Assembly: GCA_031256725.1 (NCBI GenBank)
Contig: JAIRQE010000009.1
Span: 58,543-90,542 of the forward strand
DNA: 32,000 bases
Source of the DNA: Propionibacteriaceae bacterium
GTDB taxonomy: Bacteria > Actinomycetota > Actinomycetes > Propionibacteriales > Propionibacteriaceae
Direction of reading: 5' to 3'
The notes beneath the pieces were generated by a model that saw only the letters and a program-made list of their open reading frames with translations, made no database searches and had not been told where the DNA came from. Of this stretch, positions 3,012 through 32,000 are shown piece after piece. Every line of letters starts with the position of its first letter. The first letter of the stretch is position 1. Both the position numbers and the translations under genes were made by a program.

Positions 3012-3231
3012 GAAAACCTGCACTCCTTTCCCATAGGTGAGGTCGAGCTAAGGACAATCAACCATCTGCATCTGAGAAGGGAGCATTGTAAATATGCCCT
3101 CCCAGATCTGCGGTTATGCCACACTAACTATTCTTACTTGAGGATATACTACACATCCTTGACATAATTGCTAGGCAACCCCGATGGCGGTTTACACTTA
3201 GGTAATATCTGTAAGTCTCAACCCCACTGCT

Positions 3232-8353: not shown

Positions 8354-9283
8354 GTGCCTTATCAAGCTTTGGGATATGAGCCGAATCAGAGCGTCATTTC
8401 GACCTTTGGCAGTTTGGGGTTGAATACTCAACCTCCTGATCATGAACTTGACCCCGCGTGGCTACAAGAAGTGGCAGAGGCTCTGGTCAACGGAGAGTGC
8501 GATGTACCCTCTCGTGGTGACTTTGCTGGAACCTGCATGGATGATCGTCTGCGCTCCTGCGGTACAGATCCCCTCCTGCCCAACCTCGCTGGTGGTGCCT
8601 TGGGGTTGCTCTTTGCAGCACGCGCTGTCCTTCCGGCCTATGATCGTCAGACGTTGACTGCGGCGAGTTTCATGAGGATCTTGAGCGACGGTGGACTGCC
8701 CGTTTATGCGCATATTGATGAGGAATTTGTACGAGGCAGAGCCACAGGATGTGCTTTCAACGACCAGATCGCTTTCTCGGGTACTGCACTTCCTCGCATC
8801 CTAACTCGAGCCCACGAGTTTTTCGGGTTCACCGCAGAACCAGAGGTCCTCGACATGATCACAAGTCTGTCTGAACGGGTACATGCTCTAACAAAGGTCG
8901 ATGAGGTCACGGGCATGGACTCCTTTGACGAGAATCCTATCCTTCGCCTCAATGCTGTCAAGGAGGCTGGTGGAATCGTCGAGTTCTATGGAGGCCCTCA
9001 TCTTTCACCAGGCGCAGATATCAGCTTCCGACAACACACCACTCTTGCGCGTGAAACCCTGGATTCTGAACATGATGCCAGAATTTTCCATTTGGACGCC
9101 TGGAGTTACAGATCTACCGCACTCAAGCTGGCAATGGTACTCCCCCAAAGCCAGGCTCAAATTGAGGCTGGAGTCACCTCGGAGGATCTCGTGTGGCAGA
9201 TGGCAACTGCGATGTTCCTGAACAGTTTTTCTGCACTCGCTGCCCGTAGTACCCCTGACTCTTTGCTTGTTGTGCGTCCATAA
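8354..9283 (+). CDS. Hypothetical protein, 309 aa, no family recognised
   Basis: Clean ORF with a GTG start and GGGGAG 6 nt upstream. Codon usage is core-like. No motif could be assigned with confidence. Confidence 0.6.
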   Translation: MPYQALGYEPNQSVISTFGSLGLNTQPPDHELDPAWLQEVAEALVNGECDVPSRGDFAGTCMDDRLRSCGTDPLLPNLAGGALGLLFAARAVLPAYDRQTLTAASFMRILSDGGLPVYAHIDEEFVRGRATGCAFNDQIAFSGTALPRILTRAHEFFGFTAEPEVLDMITSLSERVHALTKVDEVTGMDSFDENPILRLNAVKEAGGIVEFYGGPHLSPGADISFRQHTTLARETLDSEHDARIFHLDAWSYRSTALKLAMVLPQSQAQIEAGVTSEDLVWQMATAMFLNSFSALAARSTPDSLLVVRP

Positions 9284-10113: not shown

Positions 10114-11550
10114 GTGACCAACACTGCAGCCGCCGCATCAGCCATCTATACCCAGATTCTTGACGTTGTTTCCACTGTCGAACCGAGAGTCGCCGAAGCC
10201 ATCCGTTCAGAGTTAAGCGACCAACGCGCTTCATTGAAGCTCATCGCTTCGGAGAACTACGCATCGCTGCCGACCCTGATGTCGATGGGTACCTGGCTTT
10301 CCGACAAATATGCTGAAGGTACGGTTGGGCATCGTTTCTATGCTGGATGCCAGAACATCGACACTGTCGAATCGGTAGCTGCCGAACACGCGAAGGCTCT
10401 CTTCGGAGCAGAGTACGCTTATGTACAACCCCACTCAGGGATTGATGCCAACCTCGTAGCCTATTGGGCGATCATGAACCTTCGCGTGGAATCCCCCACC
10501 TTGACGAGACTTCAAGCTGCCACAGTAAATGATCTCAGCGAATCCGACTGGGAGGCACTGCGCAGGGAATTCAATGAGCAGAAGGTGATGGGGATGTCAC
10601 TTGATGCTGGAGGCCATCTCACCCATGGTTTCCGCCATAATATCTCTGGCAAGATGTTCCAGCAGTGCTCCTATGGTACGAACCCCGAGACGGGACTCAT
10701 CGACTATGACGCTCTGCGCACATCAGCCCGCGAGTTCAAACCACTGATTATCGTCGCTGGTTATTCGGCTTACCCTCGTCGGGTGAACTTCGCAAAGATG
10801 CGTGAGATTGCTGATGAAGTGGGCGCCACCCTGTTTGTTGACATGGCTCATTTCGCTGGTCTCGTCGCTGGCAAGGTATTCACTGGCGAGGAGAATCCCA
10901 TCCCTTATGCCCACATCGTTGCTTCCACCACCCACAAGTCTTTGCGTGGACCTCGTGGCGGTTTCGTCTTGGCCACCTCTGAGTATGCCGACTCCGTCAA
11001 CAAGGGCTGCCCCATGGTTTTGGGTGGCCCACTTGGACATATGATGGCTGCCAAGGCTCTGGCCTTTGCTGAGGCTCGAAGCGAATCCTTCCAAACCTAT
11101 GCAGCACAGGTTGCTTCCAATGCTCAAGCATTAGCTGAGGGCCTCATGAAGCGTGGGGTACGCCTCGTCACGGGAGGTACCGACAACCATCTTGCTCTCC
11201 TTGATGTGTCAACCTTTGGTCTGACCGGTCGTCAAGCAGAATCTGCCCTTCTGGATTCTGGAGTGGTAACCAACCGTAACTCTATTCCTCGTGATCCTCA
11301 TGGCGCCTGGTACACCTCAGGTGTGCGTATTGGTACCCCTGCTCTGACGACTCGTGGATTCACCGAAGATGACTTCGATCAGGTGGCTGAATTGATCACT
11401 GAGGTCCTCACGAATACCACACCGACCTCGACACCCAAGGGCCCCTCAAAGGCTAAGTACGTCATCACTGAGGGGGTCGCTGATCGGGTACGAGCCCGTG
11501 CAGGGGAGCTCCTTGATGCCTGCCCGCTGTACCCCGGATTGGTACTCTAG
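10114..11550 (+). CDS. glyA: Serine hydroxymethyltransferase (long form, 478 aa)
   Basis: [30 protein letters not shown] and [12 protein letters not shown] (PLP lysine) motifs are present. Confidence 0.95.
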
Positions 11551-14500
11551 AGTTCTGCCATCGCTTTGAGTATCCTTTTCGACGACACGGTTTCAATGGT
11601 ACGTAGCGACTGAGCGAAGACCTGCAATCGGAACTCTTCAATGAGGTATCCAATCCTGTCGATCTCTTGAGACGACTGCGGATGCGCATCCATCAATTCT
11701 GCGTAAGCATCAAGAACAGGATCCATCTGTTCCATGCGTGATTCATCACGTCGAGGATCTGCCATAGCCGACTTGATCCTCATCTCTATTCCTCTCAGCC
11801 ATGTGGGTACCCTTGCCAGCCACTGGGTTGGAAAGACGTGAAGGAAGCCATTGAAGATGAGGCTATCGATCTGTGACGAGGTGTCTTGAACAAGATAGGA
11901 GTTCTGATCACATTTCGCGAGCAACTGGTGTACTCCTGAAGCTATGCGCAAAGACTCGGCAGCCAGAAGAACTGTAGCATGGGTGGAATCCACTTGATCA
12001 GGGCGTACACATGTGACCATCTCAGTGAAGGTGGGCTCATCTCGTACTGCCCAGGTGTCGTGACCACTGATCAAATTGGTGACGGCTACAAAGCGGGCAT
12101 CAGCTAACAGGTCCGGCACACTCGGATAGGGGCTGGACCCTAAAGCAATCTTGTCCTGGTTCGACAGGTGAGCAATCACCCACTTATAGGGTTCGGGGAG
12201 GTTGAATCCAATCAGGCGAGCTAAGCCCTGGCGATGGCTTGACTGGGCCTGATCGAGTGAGGTGAACAATACCTCAGAAACTTGAGTGACTTCGTCTTTT
12301 AGGCAGGGATAGCCAGTAACAGTCACACCATGATCCTTGATCGACAAGTTCTCAGGCATGGAACCGAAGACCCAGGTGGTCCCGGATTCACGCTTTCGTG
12401 TTGAAGATTTTTCGAGCTTCGAGAGTACCTGGCGGCTAAGATCGGATTGGAGGGTTTCCAGGTCACGACTGTACTGGGTGGATTGGCCTGTGGTGACGAG
12501 GAAACCCATTCGAAGATGATCGGGAAGTGCCTGGGGATCCCAGCCTGTGATGGTCTCACCTGTCAGTGCATGCAGGGCTCGATCCAGTTCCTCTGTGAAC
12601 GGTTTCGTATGGTCTGCATCACTTTTCTTCAACCATGCGAGGGCTTTGGTGGCCCAGTCGGGTGCTGGCACAAAGCGGGTCCTCATGGATTTGGGAAGGG
12701 TACGGATAAGCGCAGTCGCCAGATCATGTCGACTGCCTGGTACCCCCCACGTGAACGGAGCAGGATCCAAGGAACTCAATGTTGCCAGAGGTACGGTGAC
12801 CGTGACTCCATCTCGGAAATCCCCTGGCGAGAAATGGTAATCCAAACCCAGATCAGTCTCCCCAAAGACCCAGGTGTCAGGGTACGCCTCCTCGCTGACC
12901 TGGGAATCCCGACCCAGGAGATCATCAACACCCATAAGCAAGGTGGTCTTATTCCTTGGATCGGCTCGCAACCATTTGTCGAGGGCAGATAGGGAGGATA
13001 TTCCTGCTGGAATCCTGGTGTTAAAAAATTCGAAGACCTCAGCATCATCCACGAGCACTCCACGACGGCGGGCCTTGTCTTCGAGATCCTCAATCTGCTT
13101 CTTGACTACTCCATTATGTTCAGCCACCTCCCAATAAGGTGTGCCTGCACGTGGGAGTGCCAACCCTTCGACGAGCCCAGTTTGAATGAAGATGGCACGA
13201 GCCTGGTCTGGATCGATTCTGGAGAATCCAACCCTTCTTTCGGCAACGAGTACCACACCAAGAAGGGAGATCTTCTCATAAGCTAGGACTGTACCCGTGG
13301 AGGTTGCGAAAAAGGGTTCCGAGTAGGAGCGTTGGAGCATATGTGCTCCCACCTCTTCCACCTGCTCGGCAGTGATAGCGGCAACCATGTGGGCCCACAA
13401 TCGTGTGGTTTCAATCAGTTCGACCGCCACAACTAATTCTGGGGTGGCCTTGGCTAAGACTGATCCTGGAGAGATTGCGAACCTGGATCCCCTGGTTCCC
13501 AGATAGGTTCTGGGACCTCGGCGTCGACCTTGATTCATGCTTCGAGTGTCGGGTTCTATGGCCCCGATATTCGACAATAAACCGGCCATACAGGAGGTTA
13601 ATATCTCGCTCATCTGTGCAGGAACACGATTCGTTGTGAGCTTCATCTGTTTTGTGGCCTCACGCAATTGGGTCACGAGATCCTGCCACTCTCGTACCCT
13701 CAGATAGTTGAGGTACTCAGCTCGACACATACGCCTAAACTGGCTTGAGGACAGCTGTTTTCGCTGAATTTGGAGGTACTCCCATAGTCGAAGCAGTGCC
13801 GAAAAATCACCACCGATATCGGTACTGTTCTGACTGCGGTTCTTCCATCCAGTGTGGGCAGTTGTCCGTTTGGGTTCGCAGTCTGGTGGGTCCGAATCGG
13901 GACCGACTGTGGTGAACCGTGCATGGAAACTATCGGCTTCTTCACGTTTATCCTGGGGGCGCTCACGTACATCTTGGATGCTTAAAGCCGCGACGATTGT
14001 GAGTACCTCCTTCAAGCAACCCCGGGGGCCAGATTCCAGAAGCATTCGAGCCAAGCGAGGATCGACTGGGAGGTTCGCCATCTTTCGGCCGAGTCCCGTC
14101 AAGCGTGGCATACGACCCTCACCCGAGATGGCACCCAGTTCGGTGAGCAGACGCAGACCATCGTGAACCTGCCCACGATCAGGTGGCTCCACGAATGGGA
14201 AGTCTGCGATATCACCCAAGCGCGCATTGGCCATGGCAAGGATCACCGAAGCAAGATTGGTTCTCAGTATCTCAGGTTCGGTGTACTTCTCCCGTGAATC
14301 AAAGTCGGCTTGAGAGTACAAACGCACGCAGATCCCGGGAGCCACACGCCCACATCGTCCAGCCCGTTGATTGGCTGAGGCCTGGGAGATCGACTCAATG
14401 GGGAGGCGTTGTACCTTCGTACGGGCAGAGTATCGAGAGATGCGAGCAAAACCGGGATCGACGACATAGCGAATCCCTGGAACCGTCAGTGAGGTTTCGG

Positions 14501-20988: not shown

Positions 20989-22770
20989 ATGTCGTACGCG
21001 CTGATGTCCCAGTTGTTTGTTCGTACCCTAAGGGAGGACCCAGCTGATGCTGAGGTACCAAGCCATCGCTTGCTCGTAAGAGCCGGTTACATCCGCAGGG
21101 CAGCCCCTGGGATCTATTCCTGGTTGCCACTGGGGTTGAAGGTACTGGCTAAGGTGGACCGCATCGTACGAGAAGAGGTCGAAGCTATTGGGGCTCAAGA
21201 GGTGCATTTCCCAGCCCTTCTCCCCAAAGAGCCCTATGAGCAGACCAACAGGTGGACTGAGTACGGACCCAACCTGTTCAGGCTCAAGGATCGCAAGGGT
21301 GTAGACATGCTTCTTGGGCCAACCCATGAGGAGATGTTTACCCTGATCGTGAAGGATCTGTATTCCTCCTACAAGGATCTTCCAGTGATCCTTTATCAGG
21401 TGCAGACCAAGTACCGTGATGAGGCCCGCCCGCGCGCTGGAATCCTTCGTGGACGCGAGTTCACGATGAAGGACTCCTATTCCTTTGATATTGATGAGGC
21501 TGGGTTGCAGGTGGCCTATGACAAGCATCGCGAGTGCTACCAGCGGATCATGGAAAGACTCGGCCTTGAGTATGTGATCGTCAAGGCGACCTCTGGAGCC
21601 ATGGGAGGTTCCCGTTCTGAAGAGTTCCTCGCGTTGGCAGACAATGGCGAAGATACCTTTGTACGCTCTCCTGGCGGGTATGCCGCCAATGTTGAGGCTG
21701 CCTCGGTAGCCCCAGGCGAACCCCAGGATTATTCCACAGTCCCAAGCCCAACAACTATCGATACTCCAGGGGCCTCAACCATTGATCTTCTCGTGACTGC
21801 GGTCAACGAGGCTGCACCCCGCAAGGATCGTGAATGGAATGGTGGTGACACTCTCAAGAATGTCGTCTTCATGAGGGTGACTCCTGAAGGAAAGCGCAGC
21901 CCACTGATCATCGGACTTCCAGGGGATCGCGAGGTTGACGAAAAGAGGTTGGAAGCCGCCATTAGCCCTGATGAGGTTGAACCCTTCAATGATGATGATT
22001 TTGAAGCCCACCCCATGCTCGTCAAAGGCTACATCGGCCCTGGTGTACTCACCGAAAACTTAGCATTGCTTGGAACCAAGGGCAGCTCTCAGATCACCTA
22101 TCTGACTGATCCTAGGGTTGTCGAAGGTACGTCGTGGATCACGGGCGCTAATACTGCCGATACCCACGTCATCAACCTCGTCATGGGTAGAGATTTCACC
22201 TCCGATGGGATCATTGATGTCGCTGAGATCCGTGAAGGTGACCCAGCTCCCGATGGTTCAGGTCCCCTAGAATTGGCTCGCGGGGTGGAAATGGGTCACA
22301 TCTTCCAATTGGGGAAGAAGTACGCTGAAGCCCTCGGACTTCAGGTCCTGGATGCCAATGGGAAACTTGTGACAGTCACCATGGGCTCCTATGGGTTTGG
22401 TGTCACCCGAGCAGTTGCTATGGTGGCTGAGTCTAGCTGTGATGACAAGGGGCTCGCTTGGCCTCGAAACCTCGCACCCTTCGATGTTGTCATCATTGTC
22501 GCTGGTAAGGACGAACAGGCCCACGAGGTTGCTAGCAAACTCGCAGAAGACCTGGATAGTGCTGAAGTTGAGGTTGTCCTTGATGATCGCAATGTTTCAC
22601 CTGGGGTTAAGTTTGCAGACTCGGAACTCATCGGATTCCCGACCTGTGTTGTCGTTGGTCGTGGCTTGAAGGACGGTGTCGTCGAGGTACGTGACCGTGC
22701 TCAGGATACGGCCCGAAATGTACCAGTGGATGAGGCTCTCGCCGAAATACTTTCTGAGGTTCGTTCCTAG
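20989..22770 (+). CDS. proS: Proline--tRNA ligase (bacterial type with INS editing domain)
   Basis: The N-terminus [31 protein letters not shown] is collinear with E. coli ProS. Class II motifs are present ([17 protein letters not shown]). ATG 20989 with AAGGAG 6 nt upstream is preferred over the track start at 20959. Confidence 0.95.
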
Positions 22771-23693
22771 GCGTCCGGCCAGCCGGGCCATACTGCGAAA
22801 CCTATTCCGGCTGATGTTGCTGTAGTCGCTGCCCTGATGAAGAAGGGAAGGGAACGACCCGCATCCTCAGAGGTCGCAACCCAGACCAGACAGGCCTCAA
22901 CGACGCTGTGCTGGCTAGTGACCAAGAGGGCTCGTACTGCTGTGGCATCCCGACCGGCAGGAAGGGCGTAGGCTCCAGGAGACTTGGGTGGTGTGATTCC
23001 AAGGTCAAGAGCAGTACCGATCAGGAATTCCCAGTCACGTTGGAAGGTGGCAAAGGTACGATAAACCTGATCACGGTCGGTACCCTGTCCTAGGAAACCC
23101 AAACCCGCCTGGAGTGAAAAAACAGCCTCGTCATATCGTCCAATCAATTCTGCGATGGCTTCAGCTTCAGTAGGAATCTGAATGGTCACGGTGGGATCCA
23201 TGGGAACAGCCTCACCATAGGAGTTCGTTAACCCCTCCTGGATCTGGGTCAGACTCGCAGTCAAACTCGCCCACAGAGCCGCTGCCAGACCTGTAGAGAC
23301 CTTCACCCGTTCAGTGTGGGCATCCACAGCGGCAGTGAGAGCCGTCTGGGCGGAGGTCATCGTTGTCTCGAAATCCAATCTGAAGGGCTCGCCCACACTC
23401 ACGTTCACTGCACGAATCCTGTTCAACGGATCAGGGCCAACCATCACCTCCCATTGGGACTCAAGGGTTTGGACCATGGCTGCCCACTTGGATTCATCAG
23501 GTTGGTGTTCCACCAAACCAGAGATCGCAGACCATGCTGTTTGAATCTCCTCAGCAGATTTGCGTACTTCGGTGGCAAAAACGGGATCCGTATCAGGGGT
23601 TGGTGGCGTACCACTGAATCGTGGATCAGAGAAAGTACATCCCGATAGGCACACCAGAACCAGGATCATTGAGAAGACAATGAGTTTTCGCAT
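22767..23693 (-). CDS. Putative secreted lipoprotein of unknown function
   Basis: [19 protein letters not shown] is a signal peptide with the lipobox L-S-G-C. ATG 23693 is preferred over TTG 23708. The mature part is helical and Ala-rich, with no family assigned. Confidence 0.65.
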
Positions 23694-23869
23694 GAGATGA
23701 TCGTACAATGGACGTGGGGATCATACCCAAAACCCAGTGCCTGAGCTAGAGTATATGCATGCTCTGACACTATCTTCTTTCCTGAAGTCAGTGAAAGGGT
23801 TGAGGGAGCATAGCGACCAGTACCCCCATGAGGGACAAGTGAACCCGACAATCGAAGAGGAGACCGGCG

Positions 23870-24337
23870 ATGAACTCGTTGCGCGATGTGGTTGAGTCTG
23901 TCCTGCTACGCCGGGGTCATGAACTTGAGGGTCTCACCCAAACCAAGGCTGGATCTAGAATCCTTGTCAAGATCACTATCGACGGAGATGGTAGTGAAGG
24001 CAAGGGTTTGACCCTGGATGAAATCGCTGAAACCTCCAAAGAAATCTCACAGGTACTTGATGAGACCAGCGCAATGGGGAATGCCGCTTATGTTCTCGAA
24101 GTCGGTACACGAGGAGTTGATGCTCCCCTCACGAAGTCCTCCCATTGGCGACGCAATACCGGTCGCCTCGTGAAAATCACAGACGTGGATGGCGGCAAAC
24201 TCACAGCCAGAATCCTTGACTCGGATGACACATCGGTCACCCTGAGCGAGGATCACATTATGGAGTACACCCAGATCAAGAAAGCCATTGTTCAAGTTGA
24301 GATGAATCGCGATGAACAAACAAAGGACGAGGAGTAG
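23870..24337 (+). CDS. rimP: Ribosome maturation factor RimP
   Basis: 155 aa, immediately upstream of nusA (3-nt gap). It has the typical RimP N-terminal domain (LEVGTRGVDAPL) and a C-terminal Sm-like domain. Confidence 0.9.
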   Translation: MNSLRDVVESVLLRRGHELEGLTQTKAGSRILVKITIDGDGSEGKGLTLDEIAETSKEISQVLDETSAMGNAAYVLEVGTRGVDAPLTKSSHWRRNTGRLVKITDVDGGKLTARILDSDDTSVTLSEDHIMEYTQIKKAIVQVEMNRDEQTKDEE

Positions 24338-24339
24338 TC

Positions 24340-25314
24340 GTGGACATCGATTTGAGCGTATTGCGGCAGTTAGAGCAGGATCGAGGGATCAAAGTAGAGG
24401 TAATGATCTCTGCCCTAGAAGAGGCCCTAGTTCACGCCTATGAGAAGGTACCTGGCCATTCCCAGGGTGCCCGAGTCACCCTTGATAGGCGTACAGGCAA
24501 GGTTGCAGTGTGGGTACCTGAACTTGATGACGAGGGTGAGAAGATCGGCGAAGTCGATGGTACCCCTGATGATTTTGGTCGAGTTGCCGCTGCGACAGCC
24601 CGCCAAATCATCATGAATCGTATCCGTGAAGCCGAGGACGAGCAACGCTATGGCCACTTTGTCACCAAAGAGGGCGATATCGTCATGGGTACGATCCAAC
24701 AGGACAAGGACTCTCGCACAGTACGCGTAGACCTGGGCAGTGTCGAAGCCATCATGCCCCTGGCGGAACAGGTCCCCACAGAGACCTATACCCATGGGAT
24801 GAAACTGCGTGTATACGTTTTTGCCGTCCGCAAAGAATTGCGCGGACCCCAGGTTGTGGTCTCGCGTACCCACCCTGGCCTCGTAGAAAAACTCTTCCGC
24901 CAAGAGGTACCCGAAATCTCAGAGGGGTTAGTCGAGATTCGTGAGATCGCCCGCGAAGCAGGACATCGCACAAAGATCGCCGTACGCTCCCGTTCCGCCG
25001 AAGTGTCGGCCAAGGGTGCCCTCATTGGCCCCATGGGTTCAAGGGTACGCGCGGTCATGAATGAACTTGCTGGAGAGAAGATCGACATCATCGATTGGTC
25101 CGAGGATCCTGCCGAGTTCGTGACCCAGGCCCTGTCTCCAGCGCGTGTCTCTTCCGTCACAATCATTGACCTTGTAGGTCGTAAAGCCCTAGTGATCGTA
25201 CCCGACTATCAACTGAGTCTTGCTATTGGACGCGATGGTCAAAACGCGCGCCTAGCCGCCAAACTCACTGGGTGGCGGATCGATATTCGCCCTGACAACG
25301 GCGAGCCCAAGTAA
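24340..25314 (+). CDS. nusA: Transcription termination/antitermination factor NusA (short form without AR repeats)
   Basis: 324 aa. N-terminal RNAP-binding domain, an S1 domain (GDIVMGTIQ) and two KH domains (GPMGSRVRAVMNELAGEKIDII; IGRDGQNARLAAKLTGWRIDI). Confidence 0.96.
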   Translation: MDIDLSVLRQLEQDRGIKVEVMISALEEALVHAYEKVPGHSQGARVTLDRRTGKVAVWVPELDDEGEKIGEVDGTPDDFGRVAAATARQIIMNRIREAEDEQRYGHFVTKEGDIVMGTIQQDKDSRTVRVDLGSVEAIMPLAEQVPTETYTHGMKLRVYVFAVRKELRGPQVVVSRTHPGLVEKLFRQEVPEISEGLVEIREIAREAGHRTKIAVRSRSAEVSAKGALIGPMGSRVRAVMNELAGEKIDIIDWSEDPAEFVTQALSPARVSSVTIIDLVGRKALVIVPDYQLSLAIGRDGQNARLAAKLTGWRIDIRPDNGEPK

Positions 25315-25316
25315 GC

Positions 25317-25544
25317 ATGAGCGCCCCTATTCGTACCTGTGTGGGATGCCGTACCTGTGCGCCTCAATCTGATCTCATCCGGTTAGCTTGGGATGGTTGT
25401 ACCGTGGTCATCTCCCGTACTGCCTCTGGTCGCGGAGCGTGGCTACATCCAGAACAGGCGTGTCTTGATCAGGCCAACCGCAGACGTACCATAACTCGGG
25501 CATTGAGAATCACTTCTTCGGCCCCGACTCCTACTCATTTGTGA
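25317..25544 (+). CDS. ylxR: YlxR/DUF448-family RNA-binding protein
   Basis: 75 aa with the RTCVGCR motif and GRGAWLH. It starts 2 nt after the nusA stop, the canonical operon position. Confidence 0.85.
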   Translation: MSAPIRTCVGCRTCAPQSDLIRLAWDGCTVVISRTASGRGAWLHPEQACLDQANRRRTITRALRITSSAPTPTHL

Positions 25545-25582
25545 ACGCTCACACTAGATGGAATCTAGAGTAGAGTGAGGTC

Positions 25583-26584
25583 ATGGAAACTCGTTCTTTT
25601 GGCTCGACTGGGCGCAATGTCAGTGTTATCGGTCTCGGATGTTGGCAATTCGGTGGCGACTGGGGTGAGGTCAGCGACCTTCAGGCCCTCAACATCCTCT
25701 CGACTGCTGTTGAATCCGGCGTGACTCTCATTGATACCGCTGATTGCTATGGTGATGGTCATTCCGAGGAACTGATCGGAGAATTCCTTTCCATGATTGG
25801 ATCTGCCGAGGATTTTGGACTCACAGTCATGACAAAGATGGGCCGCCTGGCTAACCCTCACATCGAGTTGGCCTACTGTTATGACAACTTCCGTGGCTGG
25901 TTGGATCGCTCCCGCAAGCTGTTGCGCATGGATCGAATCCCTCTGGTTCAACTTCATTGCCCACCAACACCGGTCTATTCCAACAACGAGGTTTATGACG
26001 CCCTGGATCGCCTAGTATCCGAGGATGTCATTGAGGCCTACGGAGTCTCCGTGGAAACCTGCGATGAGGCACTCACCGCCCTAGAACATAACATCGCCTC
26101 AATTCAGATCATCTGCAATATCCTGCGCCGAAAGCCCCTAGAAAAGGTACTGCCTGCCGCCAAGGCCAAGGGTGTGGCCATTATCGCCCGAGTGCCCTTG
26201 GCTTCTGGACTCCTCTCAGGTAAGTTCACCGAAACCACCACCTTCGCTCCCCAAGACCACCGTACTTTCAACCGTTTCGGGGAAGCCTTCGATGTCGGCG
26301 AAACCTTCTCCGGTGTCCCCTATGATCAAGGGGTCCAAGCCGGTCGCGAGGTGGCCAGGATTGCCGCTGAGATGCCAGGACAACCCACACCATCCCAGTT
26401 GGCTCTGCGCTGGCTCATCGACCAGGACGGAATCACCACAATCATCCCCGGCGCCTCCCGAGTAGAACAAGCACGCCTGAATGCTGAAGCCGCCACCCTT
26501 AAACCCCTCTCCCCCGAGATCCTAGACGAACTAGAACAGATCTACACCAAGTACGCAGCCCCCCACGTAGCCGACAAATGGTGA
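25583..26584 (+). CDS. Aldo/keto reductase family oxidoreductase
   Basis: 333 aa. GLGCWQFGG, the DTADCYGDGHSEE catalytic Asp/Tyr region, and QLALRWL...IPGASRVEQ at the C-terminus. Confidence 0.9.
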   Translation: METRSFGSTGRNVSVIGLGCWQFGGDWGEVSDLQALNILSTAVESGVTLIDTADCYGDGHSEELIGEFLSMIGSAEDFGLTVMTKMGRLANPHIELAYCYDNFRGWLDRSRKLLRMDRIPLVQLHCPPTPVYSNNEVYDALDRLVSEDVIEAYGVSVETCDEALTALEHNIASIQIICNILRRKPLEKVLPAAKAKGVAIIARVPLASGLLSGKFTETTTFAPQDHRTFNRFGEAFDVGETFSGVPYDQGVQAGREVARIAAEMPGQPTPSQLALRWLIDQDGITTIIPGASRVEQARLNAEAATLKPLSPEILDELEQIYTKYAAPHVADKW

Positions 26585-26622
26585 TGTGAACAATAAATGC
26601 TTCCTGGAAGAATAGTCATCCA

Positions 26623-26841
26623 TCATGCGTCATCCATCGTATCCTTGAGCCGCGTCATTTCAACATGATAACAAGCATTCGCGCTTCGCTTGATAGCGTT
26701 CAATCGTTCACATTCCACGTGAGCACGATCCTCACTCCACCATGCCGACACACACGTATAACATTCATGAGATGTATATTTATCAATGCGAACAATTAAG
26801 TAGATATGCCTATACTTTAGGTTAGGCTTGTTCATATTCAT
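26623..26841 (-). CDS. Small hypothetical protein (72 aa), putative immunity partner of the decayed cassette 6
   Basis: GGAGG lies 5 nt upstream of ATG 26841. The start overlaps by 20 nt the end of the upstream frameshifted reading frame. There are four Cys/His-containing positions but no recognised motif. Confidence 0.5.
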   Translation of the reverse strand: MNMNKPNLKYRHIYLIVRIDKYTSHECYTCVSAWWSEDRAHVECERLNAIKRSANACYHVEMTRLKDTMDDA

Positions 26842-27190
26842 TACTTCCTCCAGGTTCTGTAATCAATGAACCGAGATACTCACCAGTTCTAGAATCATAC
26901 ACATCACCCGTTCTACCGATTGCCACAGAATCAGCAGCTCCAACCCATTCCTCCATCTCTCATGCGATATCCAGGAGTGTCCATAAAACTATCTAAATAG
27001 TTAGCCAATTGATCACCCCCATATCGTTGGCCCACTGATGAGACTTATCACCTGGAACAGGATCAAAAGCAGTGATACCATCCCTAGTTCAACAGCGTCA
27101 ATAGGTTTATGGGGTTCATATCTCATCCACACCACGCCAAACCTTATGCGCCTCGGAAAAGTCCCTTTCTTAAGCTTGGAAAACGGTTCA
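26822..27190 (-). pseudogene. Frameshift-decayed toxin-tip remnant (cassette 6)
   Basis: In hand translation, three reading frames are open in staggered succession. They read ...KGTFPRRIRFGVVWMRYEPHKPIDAVEL / RDGITAFDPVPGDKSHQWANDMG / GDQLANYLDSFMDTPGYRMRDGGMGW / GAADSVAIGRTGDVYDSRTGEYLGSLITEPGGSNEYEQA*. This is a plausible globular domain only if about 3 frameshifts are repaired. It fills the otherwise empty gap between two cassette genes. Confidence 0.35.
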
Positions 27191-27664
27191 TCAGGTCTCA
27201 GTCATTGAATCTGAAGATTCAGATAAATACTTCGCCGCCAGTAACAACCGGAATTCTTGTCTATCTTCAACTGAAGCTAAAGCCTCATAAATGCCCTCAT
27301 GAACTGCGACCAATGGATCTGGATCAGTAACAAACAAGACAGCAGCCACGGCACGAGCCTTACGAAACATGTCCAGATAGTCTTCTTTTAACTGATCATG
27401 CTCAAATGCCTCAACCTCCGACAGGCGAAAATATAATTCATCATACTCTGTTGATAAATCTTCCAGATACCTTCTATCTTGCTCACTGGAAGACGCCCCT
27501 GATTCCAGCATCGAGAGAATAACTTCAATGCGTTCATCTTGAATCCCATTAAGAAAGATAGCTCTACGACAAACCTTTACAGCCAACAAACGATACCTTG
27601 TCTCATCAAGATACTCCAGATCCTTGACTAGATCTGGATATTCTGCAAATAACCTGGTCACCAT
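27191..27664 (-). CDS. Acidic all-helical hypothetical protein (157 aa), putative immunity protein of cassette 5
   Basis: Its ATG overlaps the stop of the upstream 73-aa ORF (ATGGTGA, 27658-27664). It is rich in E/D/L/R with a helical repeat-like character. Confidence 0.6.
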   Translation of the reverse strand: MVTRLFAEYPDLVKDLEYLDETRYRLLAVKVCRRAIFLNGIQDERIEVILSMLESGASSSEQDRRYLEDLSTEYDELYFRLSEVEAFEHDQLKEDYLDMFRKARAVAAVLFVTDPDPLVAVHEGIYEALASVEDRQEFRLLLAAKYLSESSDSMTET

Positions 27665-27879
27665 GGAACTCTTGCCGGTGTCACAATAGTAGCACCAGTT
27701 CTAACAATTTCTTCGACACAGTTGGGACAAACAGGACGCCCAGCCCCCAGAGTCAGACTGCCTCCAACTTCTTCTGCGTACTCTATGAGTTTAGTCTCGC
27801 CATTATGAATTATGACTCTAATGTCAACACCTTCACGAGTACCCTTCATCCAAACATCAGAGAAATCGACAAGATACAT
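27658..27879 (-). CDS. 73-aa ORF with a PVCPNC motif; putative small or truncated toxin tip of cassette 5
   Basis: Translationally coupled to the 157-aa ORF. It is separated from the upstream junction fragment by 87 nt that carry three in-frame stops. An alternative frame stays open across most of that gap. Confidence 0.4.
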   Translation of the reverse strand: MYLVDFSDVWMKGTREGVDIRVIIHNGETKLIEYAEEVGGSLTLGAGRPVCPNCVEEIVRTGATIVTPARVPW

Positions 27880-27966
27880 TGTCTCAATCCAATTCAGCTG
27901 GGGTCAATGCACGAACCGTACTAGACCTCAACTCCAAATCATGCTGCACCCGTGCAAGCTGCCCAT

Positions 27967-28359
27967 CTAGCACCAAAGCCTCCTTATGAGTAGAACCGCT
28001 GTGGCAGCATCCGAAGCCCTATCCGTAGTACGCGCCAAATCAAAAGCATTGGATGCAGTCCGAGCAGCATCAGCTATATCATCGATATGACCGACAGCAT
28101 TCACGACACCGCGAGCCATACCAGTGGGACTGATGAAACTCGTGACAGTCACAACACCATCAATAATGTTGTATATAGTTTCGTTGCCGCCCAGGAGATT
28201 GTCTTTGATGAAGTTCGTACCCGTGTGCTCGGCCACCATCTCGTTGACATCACGAGCTCCCAAATCCCCCAAACCAGGTATCGCGCTTTGTGAACAGCAC
28301 AAACCAACACCAAGAACACCCACACACAACAGAACCCAGATTTTATGCAAATAATACAT
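27967..28359 (-). CDS. 130-aa ORF: N-terminal hydrophobic segment plus a copy of the pre-toxin junction, ending prematurely
   Basis: Strong RBS (AAGAGGTGA, then ATG 28359). It contains the hydrophobic segment IWVLLCVGVLGVGLCC. Its C-terminal AVGHIDDIADAARTASNAFDLARTTDRASDAATAV aligns at 18/34 identities with VGHIDDAADTIRGVTNTLDTIKSVDKASDTATAI in the main toxin at 31897-31998. Confidence 0.55.
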   Translation of the reverse strand: MYYLHKIWVLLCVGVLGVGLCCSQSAIPGLGDLGARDVNEMVAEHTGTNFIKDNLLGGNETIYNIIDGVVTVTSFISPTGMARGVVNAVGHIDDIADAARTASNAFDLARTTDRASDAATAVLLIRRLWC

Positions 28360-28381
28360 ATATCACCTCTTTCGCGACCAC

Positions 28382-28417
28382 GCAATCAATGCTCACTTAG
28401 CAATCAATGCTCACTTA
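28382..28417. repeat. Perfect 18-bp tandem duplication (gcaatcaatgctcactta x2)
   Basis: Checked base by base: 28382-28399 equals 28400-28417. The second copy contains the stop codon of the 136-aa ORF (28411-28413). The first copy lies in the spacer before the next cassette. Confidence 0.9.
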
Positions 28418-28821
28418 TCAGCCCTCACCCGACTCCATTGAGTATCACACACTTGCGCATCTTCAAAAGACTGCTGCTGCAACAGCACATGGTCAACAAA
28501 CCACACAGGCAACCGAACCGCATGCTCTAAAACATAATGCTCCAGACCCTGCGGCCACATATAGCATCCATCAGACAAATCCATACAACCAAGAACTTCA
28601 CCACATATCCGACACACCGCTTTCCCAAGGTACACCCGAGCTATGAGACCACGACTAAGGTAATCAGCAACAACAGTTCGCTCACCAATCGACCACGCAA
28701 CATCAATCATCTCTTCAGGCCTCGGCCAGTTATCATCACCATTGGACCAATACCCAACCATTTCAAACCTCACAGGCAAAATACTAGCCTCCTGGTGTGA
28801 AAACCTGCCAAGTACCCCCAT
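28411..28821 (-). CDS. 136-aa hypothetical protein, putative immunity/partner protein of cassette 4
   Basis: Starts 9 nt after the stop of the 95-aa ORF. It contains a Cys cluster followed by CRICGEVLGCMDLSDGCYMWPQGLEHYVLEHAVRLPVWF. No family was assigned. Confidence 0.55.
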   Translation of the reverse strand: MGVLGRFSHQEASILPVRFEMVGYWSNGDDNWPRPEEMIDVAWSIGERTVVADYLSRGLIARVYLGKAVCRICGEVLGCMDLSDGCYMWPQGLEHYVLEHAVRLPVWFVDHVLLQQQSFEDAQVCDTQWSRVRADK

Positions 28822-28830
28822 CTAGCATCG

Positions 28831-29118
28831 TCATATTTCCCTACCACTTACAAGAAAAACTGATGTCGGAGCTTTCACACCTACACCAAGAAAATCAGCC
28901 AACTGCTGTGCGATTGGTGCACCCCCTTCAACGGGACATCCCCCAGTCGAGCACGACAACAGACGCACATCCTGACCTTGCCACGCCGGTTGCTGTCGAA
29001 TTATCTGCTCAACTTCATCCGCCGACATTCCCGAAACTGTAGTAGGTGTGCCATGCCCAATGACATCGAAATAGCCTTCTTCTCCTGGGATTTTTAGCAT
29101 TTTGATTCGGGCTCCCAT
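28831..29118 (-). CDS. 95-aa ORF with a GHG...LLSC His/Cys dyad arrangement (clan-CD / CPD-like pattern); putative toxin tip of cassette 4
   Basis: YFDVIGHGTPTTVSGMSADEVEQIIRQQPAWQGQDVRLLSCSTG has a hydrophobic strand + GHG, 34 residues, then a hydrophobic strand + (S)C. The same order and context occurs in C80 cysteine protease domains and CHAT/caspase-fold enzymes. An alternative start at ATG 29100 has GGGAG upstream. Confidence 0.45.
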   Translation of the reverse strand: MGARIKMLKIPGEEGYFDVIGHGTPTTVSGMSADEVEQIIRQQPAWQGQDVRLLSCSTGGCPVEGGAPIAQQLADFLGVGVKAPTSVFLVSGREI

Positions 29119-29204
29119 CAGGGTTAGGAATTACATCTCCATCTAGAATATGGTGACGGCCATCATCCGCTTAATTGCTTTTGAAATTCAATGGGGTTTG
29201 ATAA

Positions 29205-29666
29205 CTACTCAAAGTACTTGGGGCGAGCATCCTTGAGCCCTTGGGGTACCTTTGCATCCTGGTGATCAGCATAAGATTTTTCGACCCAGAAACCATCTTC
29301 TTTCACCCAAAAATAAGCACCCACATCTCCACTGTACCCCCACACAATATCTTCTTCATCCGCCCAATAAACATAATTCTTGTCCCTCGCACGGAATATC
29401 AGATCCGCCTCAAACGGTGGCTCACTTCCATCAACAGTCACAATAAATAACTTATAGCTTCTCACGCCATCATCATCGTAATTCTCAATCACAGCCTCAT
29501 ACTGCCCACTAGGCGAGACGAAAGGTCCATCATAATCAAACAACTCATGATTATTAATCTCAGGAACCTCGTTGCGACTCGTTAACCCTCCGTCACGCCC
29601 AATCGTACAACCTGTAAAGACGCACACCACAACAGCACACAGAGTTATTATTTTGATTCTTTTCAT
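29205..29666 (-). CDS. Lipoprotein of unknown function (153 aa), putative envelope-located immunity protein of cassette 3
   Basis: MKRIKIITLCAVVVCVFTGC is a signal peptide with the lipobox F-T-G-C. AAGGA lies 6 nt upstream of ATG 29666, which is preferred over the track start at 29705. The mature part is rich in D/E/Y/W. Confidence 0.7.
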   Translation of the reverse strand: MKRIKIITLCAVVVCVFTGCTIGRDGGLTSRNEVPEINNHELFDYDGPFVSPSGQYEAVIENYDDDGVRSYKLFIVTVDGSEPPFEADLIFRARDKNYVYWADEEDIVWGYSGDVGAYFWVKEDGFWVEKSYADHQDAKVPQGLKDARPKYFE

Positions 29667-29857
29667 TAGTATTCCTTTCTCGTTATGTGTTGGGAATTTG
29701 GACATGCAGACCTATATGGCATGATATTTGCATGGGGATCCTCTATGTCATTCGCCCAATCAACTGCGGCAATAGTCGCATCCAGAATCCTCATTGTCCG
29801 CTCCACATCCTTCACCTTGCGTACCAGGCGAGATGAATCTACGGGTCGTAGCACCAA
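29666..29857 (-). CDS. Possible 43-63-aa remnant ORF (truncated toxin tip of cassette 3?)
   Basis: It exactly fills the gap between two cassette genes. Its TAA overlaps the lipoprotein ATG (TAATG, 29664-29668). There are no motifs, so it may be non-coding. Confidence 0.25.
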   Translation of the reverse strand: MVLRPVDSSRLVRKVKDVERTMRILDATIAAVDWANDIEDPHANIMPYRSACPNSQHITRKEY

Positions 29858-30360
29858 AACGAACCTCGCGTAGCCACAAGATATAACTCACCATAGGGAT
29901 CACCATAATCTTCCGTATCAATAACTAGACGATATCCCCCCGAGAAAGTAAACACAGGCATATGCCCGTCCTCCCTCTCCGCAGTAACACCCAGAAGAAA
30001 GCGACCACCAAGCATGCCTAGCAAGGGATCGTCACACCAAACATCCTGCGTCTTATCCGACATAACCATTCGATCATCCAACCATAACTCCCACGGACAC
30101 ATAACAGTAAGATACCATTTTGCAAGTTCGCCGTAGTCTTCACTATACCCAAATGAAGAATGTCCCCCAATATTAGGAAAACCACTTATCACCGTGGCCC
30201 AATCTATACGAGCCGGAAATGCCAAGTTCATCCACTCAATTGGCGGCGGCAAAGTACTTCTCCACGTTGAGCCGGAAATCAAAGCCCTACGAACAACTGG
30301 AGCCAACAAAGCCTTGCGAACAACCCGAGTTGGCAACGCTTTACGAACAACCTGCATCAT
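29839..30360 (-). CDS. 173-aa hypothetical protein, putative immunity protein of the HINT-toxin cassette 2
   Basis: ATGA overlap with the stop of the HINT ORF (30357-30360). The N-terminal 30 residues are three VVR(K/R)AL repeats encoded by a 27-bp tandem repeat. The globular part begins about at MNLAFPARIDW (alternative start 30231). Confidence 0.6.
   Translation of the reverse strand: MMQVVRKALPTRVVRKALLAPVVRRALISGSTWRSTLPPPIEWMNLAFPARIDWATVISGFPNIGGHSSFGYSEDYGELAKWYLTVMCPWELWLDDRMVMSDKTQDVWCDDPLLGMLGGRFLLGVTAEREDGHMPVFTFSGGYRLVIDTEDYGDPYGELYLVATRGSFWCYDP
30271..30351. repeat. 27-bp tandem repeat x3 (17-nt core aaagccctacgaacaac, 14-15/17 identity between units)
   Basis: Units 30271-30297, 30298-30324 and 30325-30351 were aligned by hand. 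They are in phase with the reading frame, giving VVRKALPTR / VVRKALLAP / VVRRALISG. Confidence 0.85.
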
Positions 30361-31277
30361 GGGTTCAAATCCATATGCGTCTTATCCCTCGCCTGCTGAG
30401 ACCAGTCAGACGGTTTAGGTCTTGGCGACTGTGGCACCCGGCCGGTGAACGGATCAACAGGGTTCGCATTAGCGTCTCCAAAGAGTACACGTTCCACATG
30501 GTAGCCATCAGCATCCATCACTCTGGCAGTTGTCCCGTCCGGTAGAGTGTAAATAATACCCGAACCCCTGTCTGCGGCCCTTGATGAAGTTGCGACACGC
30601 TGTAACCCCTCCTCCAACTCAGTTCGACTAGTTGGTATCACAGTCCCGTTAGCATCTGCCATGAATCGAGGTGGCGTGACTGGTACCACAGTCCCGTTAA
30701 CATCTACTGTGAAGGTTGCTCGTGGACATGTGAAATTATGAACATTGATTTCACTATTGCCAACATAGTAGGTGTGTGGCCCAGTAACCGTCAGGTTGTA
30801 GACAATCTGTTCACCGTGAGGCCGGGACATCCCACGAACAGTAAGTGTCGACCCATCCGCCGTGAGCAGCAGGTCACCTGGTTCCAAATGATCTGTACGA
30901 ACATAGGCTCGTTTACTGTCAACCCACCACGGATGCGAGGCCGTGGTCTCAATAGTCGTACCGTCACCTAAAGTCAAGATCACAACATCATCGGTATGAG
31001 GCCAGGTTGCGGTCACAGTTTCAACAGATTGAACACCCGTACCAGGATCAAACGCGGTAACACTATCACCAGCCTGGATATCCCCAATAGGTTTCCGGGT
31101 ACCATCCCCCATCAACACAGGAGTATCCGCCGTAAACGACCTCAAACACGACGACGGCTTCGCAGTATTGACTTGCGACGGTGACGTACCCGCATCAACC
31201 TTCGACAGTGTTCCGATCAATTCATACCGCATCAGCATCAGTCGGTCCAAGCACTTCGTCAACCACGCCGTGGCCAA
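30357..31277 (-). CDS. Orphan polymorphic-toxin module: pretoxin HINT domain followed by a ~125-aa C-terminal domain of unknown function
   Basis: SFTADTPVLMGDGTRKPIGDIQAGDSVTAFDPGTGVQ...TTASHPWWV...HLEPGDLLLTADG...IVYNLTVTGPHTYYVGNSEINVHN is a textbook Hint/pretoxin-HINT pattern ending in the HN cleavage motif. There is no N-terminal secretion or repeat region. The likely translational start is ATG 31238 or 31232, overlapping the upstream ORF end. Confidence 0.85.
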   Translation of the reverse strand: MATAWLTKCLDRLMLMRYELIGTLSKVDAGTSPSQVNTAKPSSCLRSFTADTPVLMGDGTRKPIGDIQAGDSVTAFDPGTGVQSVETVTATWPHTDDVVILTLGDGTTIETTASHPWWVDSKRAYVRTDHLEPGDLLLTADGSTLTVRGMSRPHGEQIVYNLTVTGPHTYYVGNSEINVHNFTCPRATFTVDVNGTVVPVTPPRFMADANGTVIPTSRTELEEGLQRVATSSRAADRGSGIIYTLPDGTTARVMDADGYHVERVLFGDANANPVDPFTGRVPQSPRPKPSDWSQQARDKTHMDLNP

Positions 31278-31548
31278 TCACACGCGATGCTTCACTAATC
31301 TCAAAACAGTCACCCACCGAAACATTGCTACCAAAGTAAGACCAAAACGGGAACTCGATTCGCATTTTCAACGTTTCTCCAGGGTAATGACGACACTCGT
31401 CACCGTATCGATGTATTCCAGTGGTTAGAAAGTCTGCCCATTCAAAGCGATGGTGCGGCTGATAGCCGTCCACTACCCCTCTTACCTTCGGATGGGGTAC
31501 ATCAGTTTCGAAGGTAATTGTTGCCAATATCGCTCGCACAGCCGTCAC
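31222..31548 (-). CDS. 108-aa EF-Tu domain-III-like beta-barrel protein; putative immunity protein of the main toxin tip
   Basis: The GTG start abuts the toxin stop (TAG|GTG at 31549/31548). By-eye collinearity with the EF-Tu C-terminal domain covers four motifs. GYQPHHRF matches GYRPQFYF and WAD..TTG matches TTDVTG. YPGETLKMRIEF matches MPGDN..M.V.L, and FEISEASRVIGHGVVDEVL matches FAIREGGRTVGAGVV.KIL. Motif spacings differ by only 1 and 4 residues. Confidence 0.65.
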   Translation of the reverse strand: MTAVRAILATITFETDVPHPKVRGVVDGYQPHHRFEWADFLTTGIHRYGDECRHYPGETLKMRIEFPFWSYFGSNVSVGDCFEISEASRVIGHGVVDEVLGPTDADAV

Positions 31549-32000
31549 CTACAGTGCCTGCCGAATAACGGTGACAATGTCATTGAACGTTGCCAACTGA
31601 TCTTCATGGACAGTGAGCACACCACTTTTGAAAAACCACGGATCAATAGTCTGGCTTATGTCTAGCCCATCTATCGCCGCTAGGCTGCTGGTTGGCACAT
31701 CTGCAGCGACAATCGCCGCATAATTAGAATTAGTATCAGCAAATGCCAGCGTCTCTTCAAAATCAAATCCAAATTGCTTCATCTCTGCCCCATTCGGTGG
31801 AAGGCTAAACTGTCCCGTACTCATAATAGACTCATACTCGTTAGGGTCTACGGCACGGAAAACAGTTGTCGTATCGCTAGTCTTATCCGCATTCCTAATC
31901 GCAGTGGCTGTGTCACTGGCTTTATCAACACTCTTGATAGTATCCAACGTATTCGTGACACCCCGGATTGTGTCTGCTGCATCATCAATATGTCCGACAG
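31549..32000 (-). CDS. C-terminal tip of a polymorphic toxin (ORF open past the right window edge); toxin domain of unknown type
   Basis: The track ORF 31549..31947 extends in frame, with no stop, to base 32000. Hand translation reads VGHIDDAADTIRGVTNT-LDTIKSVDKASDTATAIRNADKTSDTTT. This T/D/S/A-rich linker is followed by a ~105-aa domain, VFRAVDPNEYESIMSTGQFSLPPNG...VIRQAL*. Confidence 0.7.
   Translation of the reverse strand, partial: VGHIDDAADTIRGVTNTLDTIKSVDKASDTATAIRNADKTSDTTTVFRAVDPNEYESIMSTGQFSLPPNGAEMKQFGFDFEETLAFADTNSNYAAIVAADVPTSSLAAIDGLDISQTIDPWFFKSGVLTVHEDQLATFNDIVTVIRQAL

Follow-up and report, generated by a model that had tools for sequence, protein, structure and literature searches.

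Polymorphic toxins of the Rhs type are known from the orphan rhs C-terminal toxin (rhs-CT)/immunity arrays of Enterobacteria and Pseudomonas and from WapA of Bacillus, and the Rhs toxin with orphan tips is by now a textbook locus type. In these arrays YD repeats and a core with a cleavage motif precede a variable C-terminal toxin, the immunity gene lies directly downstream, and strain-variable cassettes follow in which orphans carry conserved pieces. Here, we describe a locus with the same features from a 90.5-kb contig of a Propionibacteriaceae metagenome-assembled genome, the repeats, core and variable C-terminal toxin being seen in a relative (contig L007). It lies on the minus strand at 26585-32000 of the 32,000-nt stretch of DNA that was analysed (the window, in whose positions all coordinates are given unless another sequence is named). 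In this region an Rhs-type (YD-repeat) gene for a polymorphic toxin very probably has its 3' end, and its immunity gene and five orphan modules come after it; toxin domains (tips) and presumed immunity proteins (partners) are numbered 1 to 6, reading leftwards from base 32000. The locus differs from the described arrays in its actinobacterial host (Propionibacteriaceae), in its long post-core cargo (~440 aa, with helical repeats, a hydrophobic hairpin-like stretch, a low-complexity linker and an optional PT-HINT domain), and in the position of the orphan homology tracts, which fall in the post-core region and not in the core.

Two further systems invite comparison. TreTu and TriTu of Salmonella Rhs1 (7zhl, 7zhm; PMC9825190) resemble the first cassette in that TreTu and tip 1 are both small Rhs C-terminal domains of ~110 aa, although tip 1 is only 22-34% identical to TreTu, with no E-value reaching 0.001. 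TriTu consists of a five-stranded sheet and two helices, whereas partner 1 instead resembles domain III of EF-Tu (PF03143), with which it shares the motifs 'GY.P.f.F', 'PG[DE]' and 'F.I.E..R.[VI]G.G.V.E[VI]'; unlike that domain, it is stand-alone, 100-113 aa long, and encoded after a toxin tip rather than in a translation operon. Immunity proteins of ADP-ribosyltransferases (ARTs) have been reported to cap the active site (PMC9825190, PMC13617354). The second system consists of the PT-TG and PT-HINT proteins of Streptomycetaceae, which a 2026 survey described with an unannotated N-terminus (PMC13483458). These are also actinobacterial and also have a pretoxin region followed by PT-HINT, a variable tip, and an unannotated N-terminal part, whereas in the family described here PT-TG was undetected in 10 members and the upstream part, where visible, is Rhs.

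A pretoxin family with exchangeable tips and an Rhs-type relative

The 130-aa junction fragment of cassette 5 (NCBI protein MDR0488423.1, locus tag LBG99_03315) was used as the query of an exhaustive HMMER search. This returned 10 relatives (35-51% identity, E = 2e-10 to 4e-4), which form a small, metagenome-only Propionibacteriaceae family of singletons on short metagenome contigs; these contigs were at most 15 kb long and ended at contig edges around the conserved part. The family region is composed of a hydrophobic Gly/Ala-rich stretch of ~40 residues ('VGKVALMVGGAALTIATLGAAGPVVGAIMIAGLVASTAM'), the motif 'VNDMVADATGTNFIKD', a second hydrophobic segment with a 'GPxGA' end, and a low-complexity linker, beyond which there is either a bare tip or PT-HINT and a tip. 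Comparison across the family showed at least eight different tips on this one pretoxin region and linker. P0015 carries PT-HINT and a colicin E5 RNase tip (Colicin_E5, E = 2.5e-26), and the tips of P0014 and P0022 are the intact form of the 95-aa open reading frame (ORF) of cassette 4 (tip 4). In L002 and L004, two contigs from the same termite-gut metagenome, the pretoxin part and linker are identical while the tips differ, the genes downstream in L004 encoding DUF4279 and Barstar; the same body with different tips is what defines a polymorphic toxin. The assignment of the pretoxin region to PT-TG (PF14449) was rejected because the model was undetected in all members, neither the 130-aa fragment nor the 10 family members matching it at E<=10. 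There was likewise no match to LXG, WXG, or PT-TG in any visible part of the family.

The main ORF of the window is open to base 32000, stops at 31549-31551, and carries in its 3' part (31885-32000) a linker and junction collinear with residues 188-224 of P0012, the linker behind its pretoxin region (p ~7e-5). What precedes such a pretoxin region can be seen in L007, the contig of P0022, where the ORF reaches upstream of it and runs off the start of the contig. This ORF contains RHS repeats (RHS_repeat, PF05593, E = 2.9e-6) and YD repeats (YD_repeat_2x, TIGR01643, E = 9e-10), both passing curated cut-offs, and an Rhs-associated core (TIGR03696, aa 451-530, E = 1.9e-20, above the curated cut-off) that ends '...NRYTYAWSDPVNMSDPSGY'. 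The core is followed by three 19-aa helical repeats, a helical segment, and the pretoxin region with its linker; homologues of tip 4 and partner 4 come next in the 3' part, and then a further HINT-end orphan. The helical segment after the core runs collinear with the N-terminal portions of P0012 and P0016, and RHS is also present in the Pseudomonas carrier of tip 1 discussed below. Because the Rhs core of L007 precedes the same pretoxin region and the linker of the window is collinear with the linkers of the family, the main ORF, which runs past base 32000, most likely encodes an Rhs toxin like that of its relative L007.

A sequence-only reading of the window had proposed a polymorphic toxin locus with a repeated pre-toxin junction. 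The junction is indeed repeated: that of the main ORF and that of the 130-aa fragment are 53% identical over 34 aa (E = 1e-7), and both contain the motif 'VGHIDD.AD..R...N..D......D.ASD.ATA'. A second direct repeat, missed in that reading, pairs 27041-27132 with the HINT start at 31026-31118 (72-74% identity), which identifies the cassette 6 remnant as a decayed HINT start. The conserved stretches of the orphans (pretoxin half, linker, HINT start or end) are most likely tracts of former tip swapping onto the main gene. The presence or absence of cassettes, which the same reading had singled out as a check, also varies across samples, ~2 kb with cassettes 3, 4, and part of 5 being replaced by 230 bp in L003. 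The polymorphic-toxin proposal is upheld by one body with different tips, by the co-travel of tips and partners (1 and 4), and by orphans with homology tracts.

Tip 1 and a partner resembling EF-Tu domain III

Tip 1 (31552-31884) is an intact domain of 111 aa, in frame with the main ORF, and its predicted structure probably adopts an ART fold similar to that of TreTu. When the AlphaFold2 model (predicted local distance difference test score, pLDDT, 76.6; predicted template modelling score 0.73) was compared with the PDB using Foldseek, the top 20 matches were all ART folds, with probability up to 0.99 and template modelling scores of 0.5-0.6; among the ART matches were Tpt1/KptA, TreTu 7zhl, RhsP2, CC0527, cholera toxin, DarT, and PARPs. 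TreTu 7zhl was also the top, weak match of a phmmer search of the PDB (E = 0.32), and hhalign of a four-member tip 1 profile against TreTu gave P = 2e-4. The NAD-contacting R6 and E12 of TreTu correspond to invariant R10 and E16 of tip 1, S25 and H31 are unmatched, and the aromatic or hydrophobic character of F41 and W68 is conserved at F48 and W83. The active tip is most likely an NAD-dependent ADP-ribosyltransferase.

Homologues of tip 1 were found in L002 (76% identity), in P0001 (52%), and at the C-terminal end of an Rhs protein from Pseudomonas (46%); representative genomes scanned with tip 1 gave no match. Tip 1 and partner 1 occur together in four loci: the window, L002 (partner 1 66% identical to that of the window), L006 (tip 1 52%, partner 1 45%), and a P. 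aeruginosa replicon. The cassette would be shared by Rhs proteins of Actinomycetota and Pseudomonadota. In P. aeruginosa the C-terminus of an FG-GAP/TcdB_mid/RHS protein of 2205 aa is formed by the tip 1 homologue, and 8 nt separate it from the partner; in the stretch 324270-327000 of L008 (CP109682.1) this protein comes directly after Mu-like genes (DUF3164, GemA, Mor). In L006 (JGI Ga0116229_10440372, 209-893) the tip 1 homologue stands free, as an ORF of 109 aa that starts at its own ATG and precedes the partner, and directly before the pair lies the apparent 3' end of a gene for an ABC permease; the pair may be an orphan here, or may be used in the manner of a toxin-antitoxin module.

Partner 1, the presumed immunity protein of tip 1, is an intact ORF of 108 aa (31222-31548). 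The protein of the window had no Pfam match at E<=0.1 and matched the NCBIfam EF-Tu model at E = 0.095; its Pseudomonas homologue matched PF03143 at E = 0.024 (15.4 bits, under the curated cut-off of 27). A profile search of the PDB was more specific, with about 42 of 45 matches being EF-Tu domain III, end to end, and the best E-value going from 0.082 to 0.007 upon addition of a divergent member. Alignment to EF-Tu domain III with hhalign improved in the same way, from P = 3.4e-5 to 1.6e-7 with more members (probability 94%), two of the five EF-Tu rows in that alignment having come from tool output and three having been entered by hand; shuffle tests on the tool-derived EF-Tu segments only gave p of 1e-5 to 2e-9. 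A tblastn search with the L006 partner returned a stand-alone ORF of 130 aa that is annotated as 'elongation factor Tu' (E = 8e-7). Homology of partner 1, as a remote relative, to EF-Tu domain III is thus well supported at the sequence level, and the protein most likely descended from that domain and would neutralise tip 1. The 130-aa protein returned by tblastn, WP_222937783.1, is made up of EF-Tu domain III only and is encoded on plasmid pA of Spartinivicinus ruber (L009, NZ_CP048879.1, 86574-86966). It is intermediate in sequence between EF-Tu and the partner 1 family and lies amid toxin-antitoxin and integrase genes, with no tip 1 homologue evident beside it.

What this homology says about the target of the toxin can be read in two ways. 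A common beta-barrel may have been reused to block the active site, as in other ART immunity proteins, so that the likeness would be uninformative on target; we regard this as a serious possibility that stops just short of being probable. It agrees with the known ART immunity proteins, which are lids on the catalytic pocket (PMC9825190, PMC13617354), and with the docking of TreTu, which engages the G domain of EF-Tu rather than domain III. It sits less well with a likeness that is specific to bacterial EF-Tu, extends end to end over domain III, and grows with added members, nor would it account for an intermediate sequence annotated as EF-Tu or for the independent observation that the closest named toxin relative of tip 1 is the EF-Tu-modifying TreTu.

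The other reading, which we offer tentatively and judge to be on the unlikely side, is that tip 1 is an Rhs-delivered ART that recognises EF-Tu via domain III and modifies either EF-Tu or something that EF-Tu carries, such as aminoacyl-tRNA, partner 1 being a free-standing decoy copy of the domain that cannot be modified. Immunity would then be conferred by target mimicry and not by an active-site lid, with both the action of the toxin on EF-Tu and the decoy role of the partner as predicted functions. EF-Tu Thr382, the target residue of the Doc kinase, aligns with V, I, or L in partner 1; this fits a non-modifiable copy and proves nothing. A literature search of incomplete coverage returned no report of immunity proteins like EF-Tu domain III.

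Delivery of the cargo

The order of the cargo in the relatives is Rhs core with cleavage motif, helical repeats, hydrophobic stretch around 'VNDMVADATGTNFIKD', low-complexity linker, sometimes PT-HINT, and tip. By analogy with known Rhs toxins, the Rhs shell would enclose this cargo and deliver it to a neighbouring cell, the hydrophobic stretch would aid passage of the tip through the target membrane, HINT, if present, would release the tip by cleavage, and the downstream gene would shield the producer. Most orphan toxin pieces would now be dead, with the partner genes kept and probably protecting against the toxins of relatives.

Several points weigh against this account of the locus. The Rhs identity of the main ORF is carried over from a relative, its own sequence upstream of base 32000 lying outside the window, and a search of 5.8 billion proteins with tip 1 did not return the main protein itself. 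No secretion genes, including those of type VII systems, were found in the 32-kb window. The DNA of the main and orphan junctions is only ~70% identical, too low for frequent present-day recombination. For tip 1, one of five AlphaFold2 models was confident, the best Foldseek E-value was 7e-3 and the rest were worse, and the HMMER profile of the tip does not recover TreTu. The toxicity, secretion, and immunity of all pairs are predictions drawn from sequence and structural models only.

A polymorphic toxin locus with the same pretoxin region and tips could also have a main ORF with non-Rhs delivery, either a WXG/LXG-type type VII substrate or a Sec-exported wall protein. Tips and partners do switch delivery types, tip 1 being carried by proteins of both Pseudomonas and Propionibacteriaceae, and homologues of partner 5 lying in contact-dependent inhibition loci; the Streptomycetaceae proteins with PT-TG and PT-HINT have an unannotated N-terminus (PMC13483458), and a 172-aa WXG100 protein is encoded 1.4 kb from the related orphan array of L005. 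Such a main ORF is nonetheless improbable in our estimation, as L007, the sole relative with its upstream part visible, is Rhs, the helical region of P0012, P0016, and P0022 is collinear with the region that follows the core of L007, and no family member matches LXG, WXG, or PT-TG. In L005 (ENA ERZ27257293 k141_155430) the WXG100 domain (E = 6.6e-8) is N-terminal in the 172-aa protein, which is followed by a 175-aa ORF (both at 10902-11944); the gene hints at type VII secretion in these bacteria. It is very unlikely that the island consists of intracellular toxin-antitoxin or defence modules rather than secreted toxins: its small paired ORFs look like type II modules and in L006 the homologue of tip 1 stands alone as an ORF of 109 aa, starting at an ATG of its own, next to its partner and an ABC permease gene, whereas tips are fused in frame to the pretoxin part, to PT-HINT, and to Rhs cores, and most toxin halves in the island are without starts or frameshifted.

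The orphan cassettes and their setting

The five modules behind the presumed Rhs toxin gene and its partner are described here in turn. Every minus-strand ORF that the sequence-only reading had listed is present at its coordinates, and the six couplings that it had reported between them match the DNA exactly, namely TAG abutting GTG (31549/31548), ATGA (30357-30360), TAATG (29664-29668), a 9-nt gap (28822-28830), ATGGTGA (27658-27664), and a 20-nt overlap (26822-26841). The 9-nt gap, however, is not a true gene boundary, as it arises from reading the 136-aa ORF of cassette 4 from ATG 28821. The further statement that the cargo is largely unassignable holds for tips 2, 5, and 6, which are unplaced, but not for tip 1 (ART fold), partner 1 (EF-Tu domain III), or partner 5 (a family found beside CdiA genes), and tip 4 is a widespread but unnamed domain. 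Apart from the 306-aa HINT ORF, no island ORF had a convincing match in Pfam or NCBIfam.

Orphan 2 is the 306-aa ORF at 30357-31277, whose start is called at ATG 31232 by NCBI and at 31238 by IMG, and it comprises a linker remnant (~31149-31238), PT-HINT (~30735-31148), and the 125-aa tip 2 (30360-30734). The pretoxin HINT domain that had been read in this ORF was confirmed with PF07591 (aa 62-181, E = 2.1e-16, 60.8 bits against a cut-off of 27.7), and its ends can be read in the sequence as 'SSC/LRSF' (N-terminal Cys) and 'VHN/FTC' (C-terminal His-Asn). The complete HINT is preceded by ~20 linker residues and is 63-69% identical to those of P0012, P0015, P0018, P0019, and P0024, with tails that differ. 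The tail formed by tip 2 had no match in Pfam, NCBIfam, PDB, or plasmids; at 30633-30713 it contains a 33-nt duplication (85% identity, 48 nt apart) encoding 'FTVDVNGTVVP' and 'FMADANGTVIP'. Partner 2 (173 aa, 29839-30360) is coupled to orphan 2 through ATGA, and a copy with 99% identity in a second sample (P0006/L003) follows a toxin tail that is divergent and frameshifted. Its N-terminus is encoded by three 27-nt repeats (30280-30351) giving the 9-aa units 'VVRKALPTR / VVRKALLAP / VVRRALISG', which are kept in the ENA homologue P0006.

Cassette 3 contains a 63-aa ORF (29666-29857) and a predicted lipoprotein. The former had been taken for a toxin remnant; no supporting evidence and no family match was found for this, and the ORF is partly retained in L003, directly after partner 2. 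The 153-aa lipoprotein (29205-29666/29705; the Logan gene call has the same start, 29666) has a signal peptide and the lipobox 'VFTGC', and is a lone immunity-type gene by prediction, without a Pfam or NCBIfam match and absent from L003.

The tip 4 fragment (28790-29118), recognised by homology to P0014 and P0022, has lost its 5' part and is frameshifted near 28840. It includes the 95-aa ORF (28831-29118), its C-terminal end resumes in another frame, and it is 65-67% identical to the P0014 and P0022 tips. The domain is widespread and has a conserved His-Gly ... Cys motif that is kept in four phyla-spanning homologues; in Streptomyces a homologue comes after a HINT end (E = 7e-9), and in Ralstonia one closes an ORF of 800 aa. 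Tip 4 was also considered as a His-Gly ... Cys enzyme of the caspase/CPD type, for which neither profiles nor the PDB gave support, and the AlphaFold2 model of P0014 was unusable (pLDDT 43); this is kept as a lead only. Tip 4 and partner 4 occur together in four loci, the window, L005, L007, and the Streptomyces plasmid L010, and partner 4 is 50% identical to the partners after the tip 4 homologues in L005 and L007. Homology suggests that partner 4 probably starts at GTG 28773 (28411-28773, 120 aa, the form called by NCBI) and not at ATG 28821, which gives the 136-aa ORF (28411-28821). At 28382-28417 a perfect 18-nt tandem duplication (GCAATCAATGCTCACTTA x2) spans the stop of partner 4 at the boundary of orphan 5, and may be a recombination or slippage scar.

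Orphan 5 begins with the 130-aa junction fragment (27967-28359), which corresponds to the C-terminal half of the pretoxin region and the linker. The tip 5 remnant (27658-27966), read in three frames, includes the 73-aa ORF (27658-27879), and two frame changes are needed to connect this ORF with the junction fragment. Tip 5 had no match in Pfam, PDB, or plasmids, and its 3' end is decayed further in L003. The idea that the 73-aa ORF is half of a DddA-type deaminase, on account of its 'PVCPNC' motif, was abandoned for lack of Pfam, PDB, or plasmid support and because the spacing of the candidate catalytic motifs is wrong. Partner 5 (157 aa, 27191-27664), whose start is conserved in L003, belongs to a family that adjoins CdiA/hemagglutinin genes in Burkholderia and Ralstonia, with 32 plasmid records in total returned by tblastn, among them Burkholderia pyrrocinia (36% identity, E = 3e-13). 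The Burkholderia CdiA C-terminal toxin upstream of the partner 5 homologue was considered as an intact tip 5, and the sequences proved to be unrelated.

Orphan 6 (26842-27135) consists of the decayed HINT start (27041-27135) and multiply frameshifted remnants of tip 6, one piece of which is 50% identical over 26 aa to a tip piece at L005:3832-4017; a 44-aa ORF of this cassette (26822-26956) runs 20 nt into partner 6. Partner 6 (72 aa, 26623-26841) is 40% identical over 70 aa to L005:8694-8933, and, judged by eye, the same small domain forms the end of two partner ORFs of L005, of 308 and 295 aa. Elsewhere in L005 (7453-7887) an orphan is made up of a HINT end and a tip with 'CAE' and 'PICPTC' 32 residues apart, a pattern that we take to be a deaminase-like signature; it had no Pfam match. 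Across cassettes 4, 5, and 6 the toxin pieces are truncated or frameshifted, with the partner ORFs intact. Toxin decay, partner persistence, and content that differs by sample are the usual picture of an orphan array.

The island has a G+C content of 0.44-0.51, compared with ~0.54 in the flanking housekeeping genes (mfd, pth, glyA, hrpA, murB, dxr, ispG, proS, rimP, nusA, ylxR, and an aldo-keto reductase gene). Its assembly is matched by the Logan contig L001 (SRR14710887), which is 100% identical to 25574-31025 of the window and ends within the HINT ORF. The GC skew over 26000-32000 is -0.2 to -0.33, far stronger than in the other minus-strand genes of the window. At 23870-26584, rimP-nusA-ylxR is followed by the aldo-keto reductase gene and then by the convergent toxin island; infB, the usual gene after ylxR, was not found in the 32-kb window. 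Promoter and terminator scans of the island gave no excess over shuffled expectation, and no tRNA gene was found to border it. ORFs of 435, 309, and 313 aa at 1716-3023, 8354-9283, and 22767-23708 had no Pfam match at E<=1e-5.

What is new in this otherwise familiar type of locus is a branch of Rhs toxins in gut Propionibacteriaceae with an unusually long cargo, whose layout is relevant to the release of a tip from the shell and to its passage through a Gram-positive envelope. Its repertoire includes tips 2, 5, and 6, which are without a family, and the widespread tip 4 with its conserved His-Gly ... Cys. The pairing of a TreTu-like tip with a look-alike of EF-Tu domain III is unexpected and new here. 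If partner 1 were a decoy of the target, this would constitute a new principle of toxin immunity, in which the target of a toxin could be read from its immunity gene.

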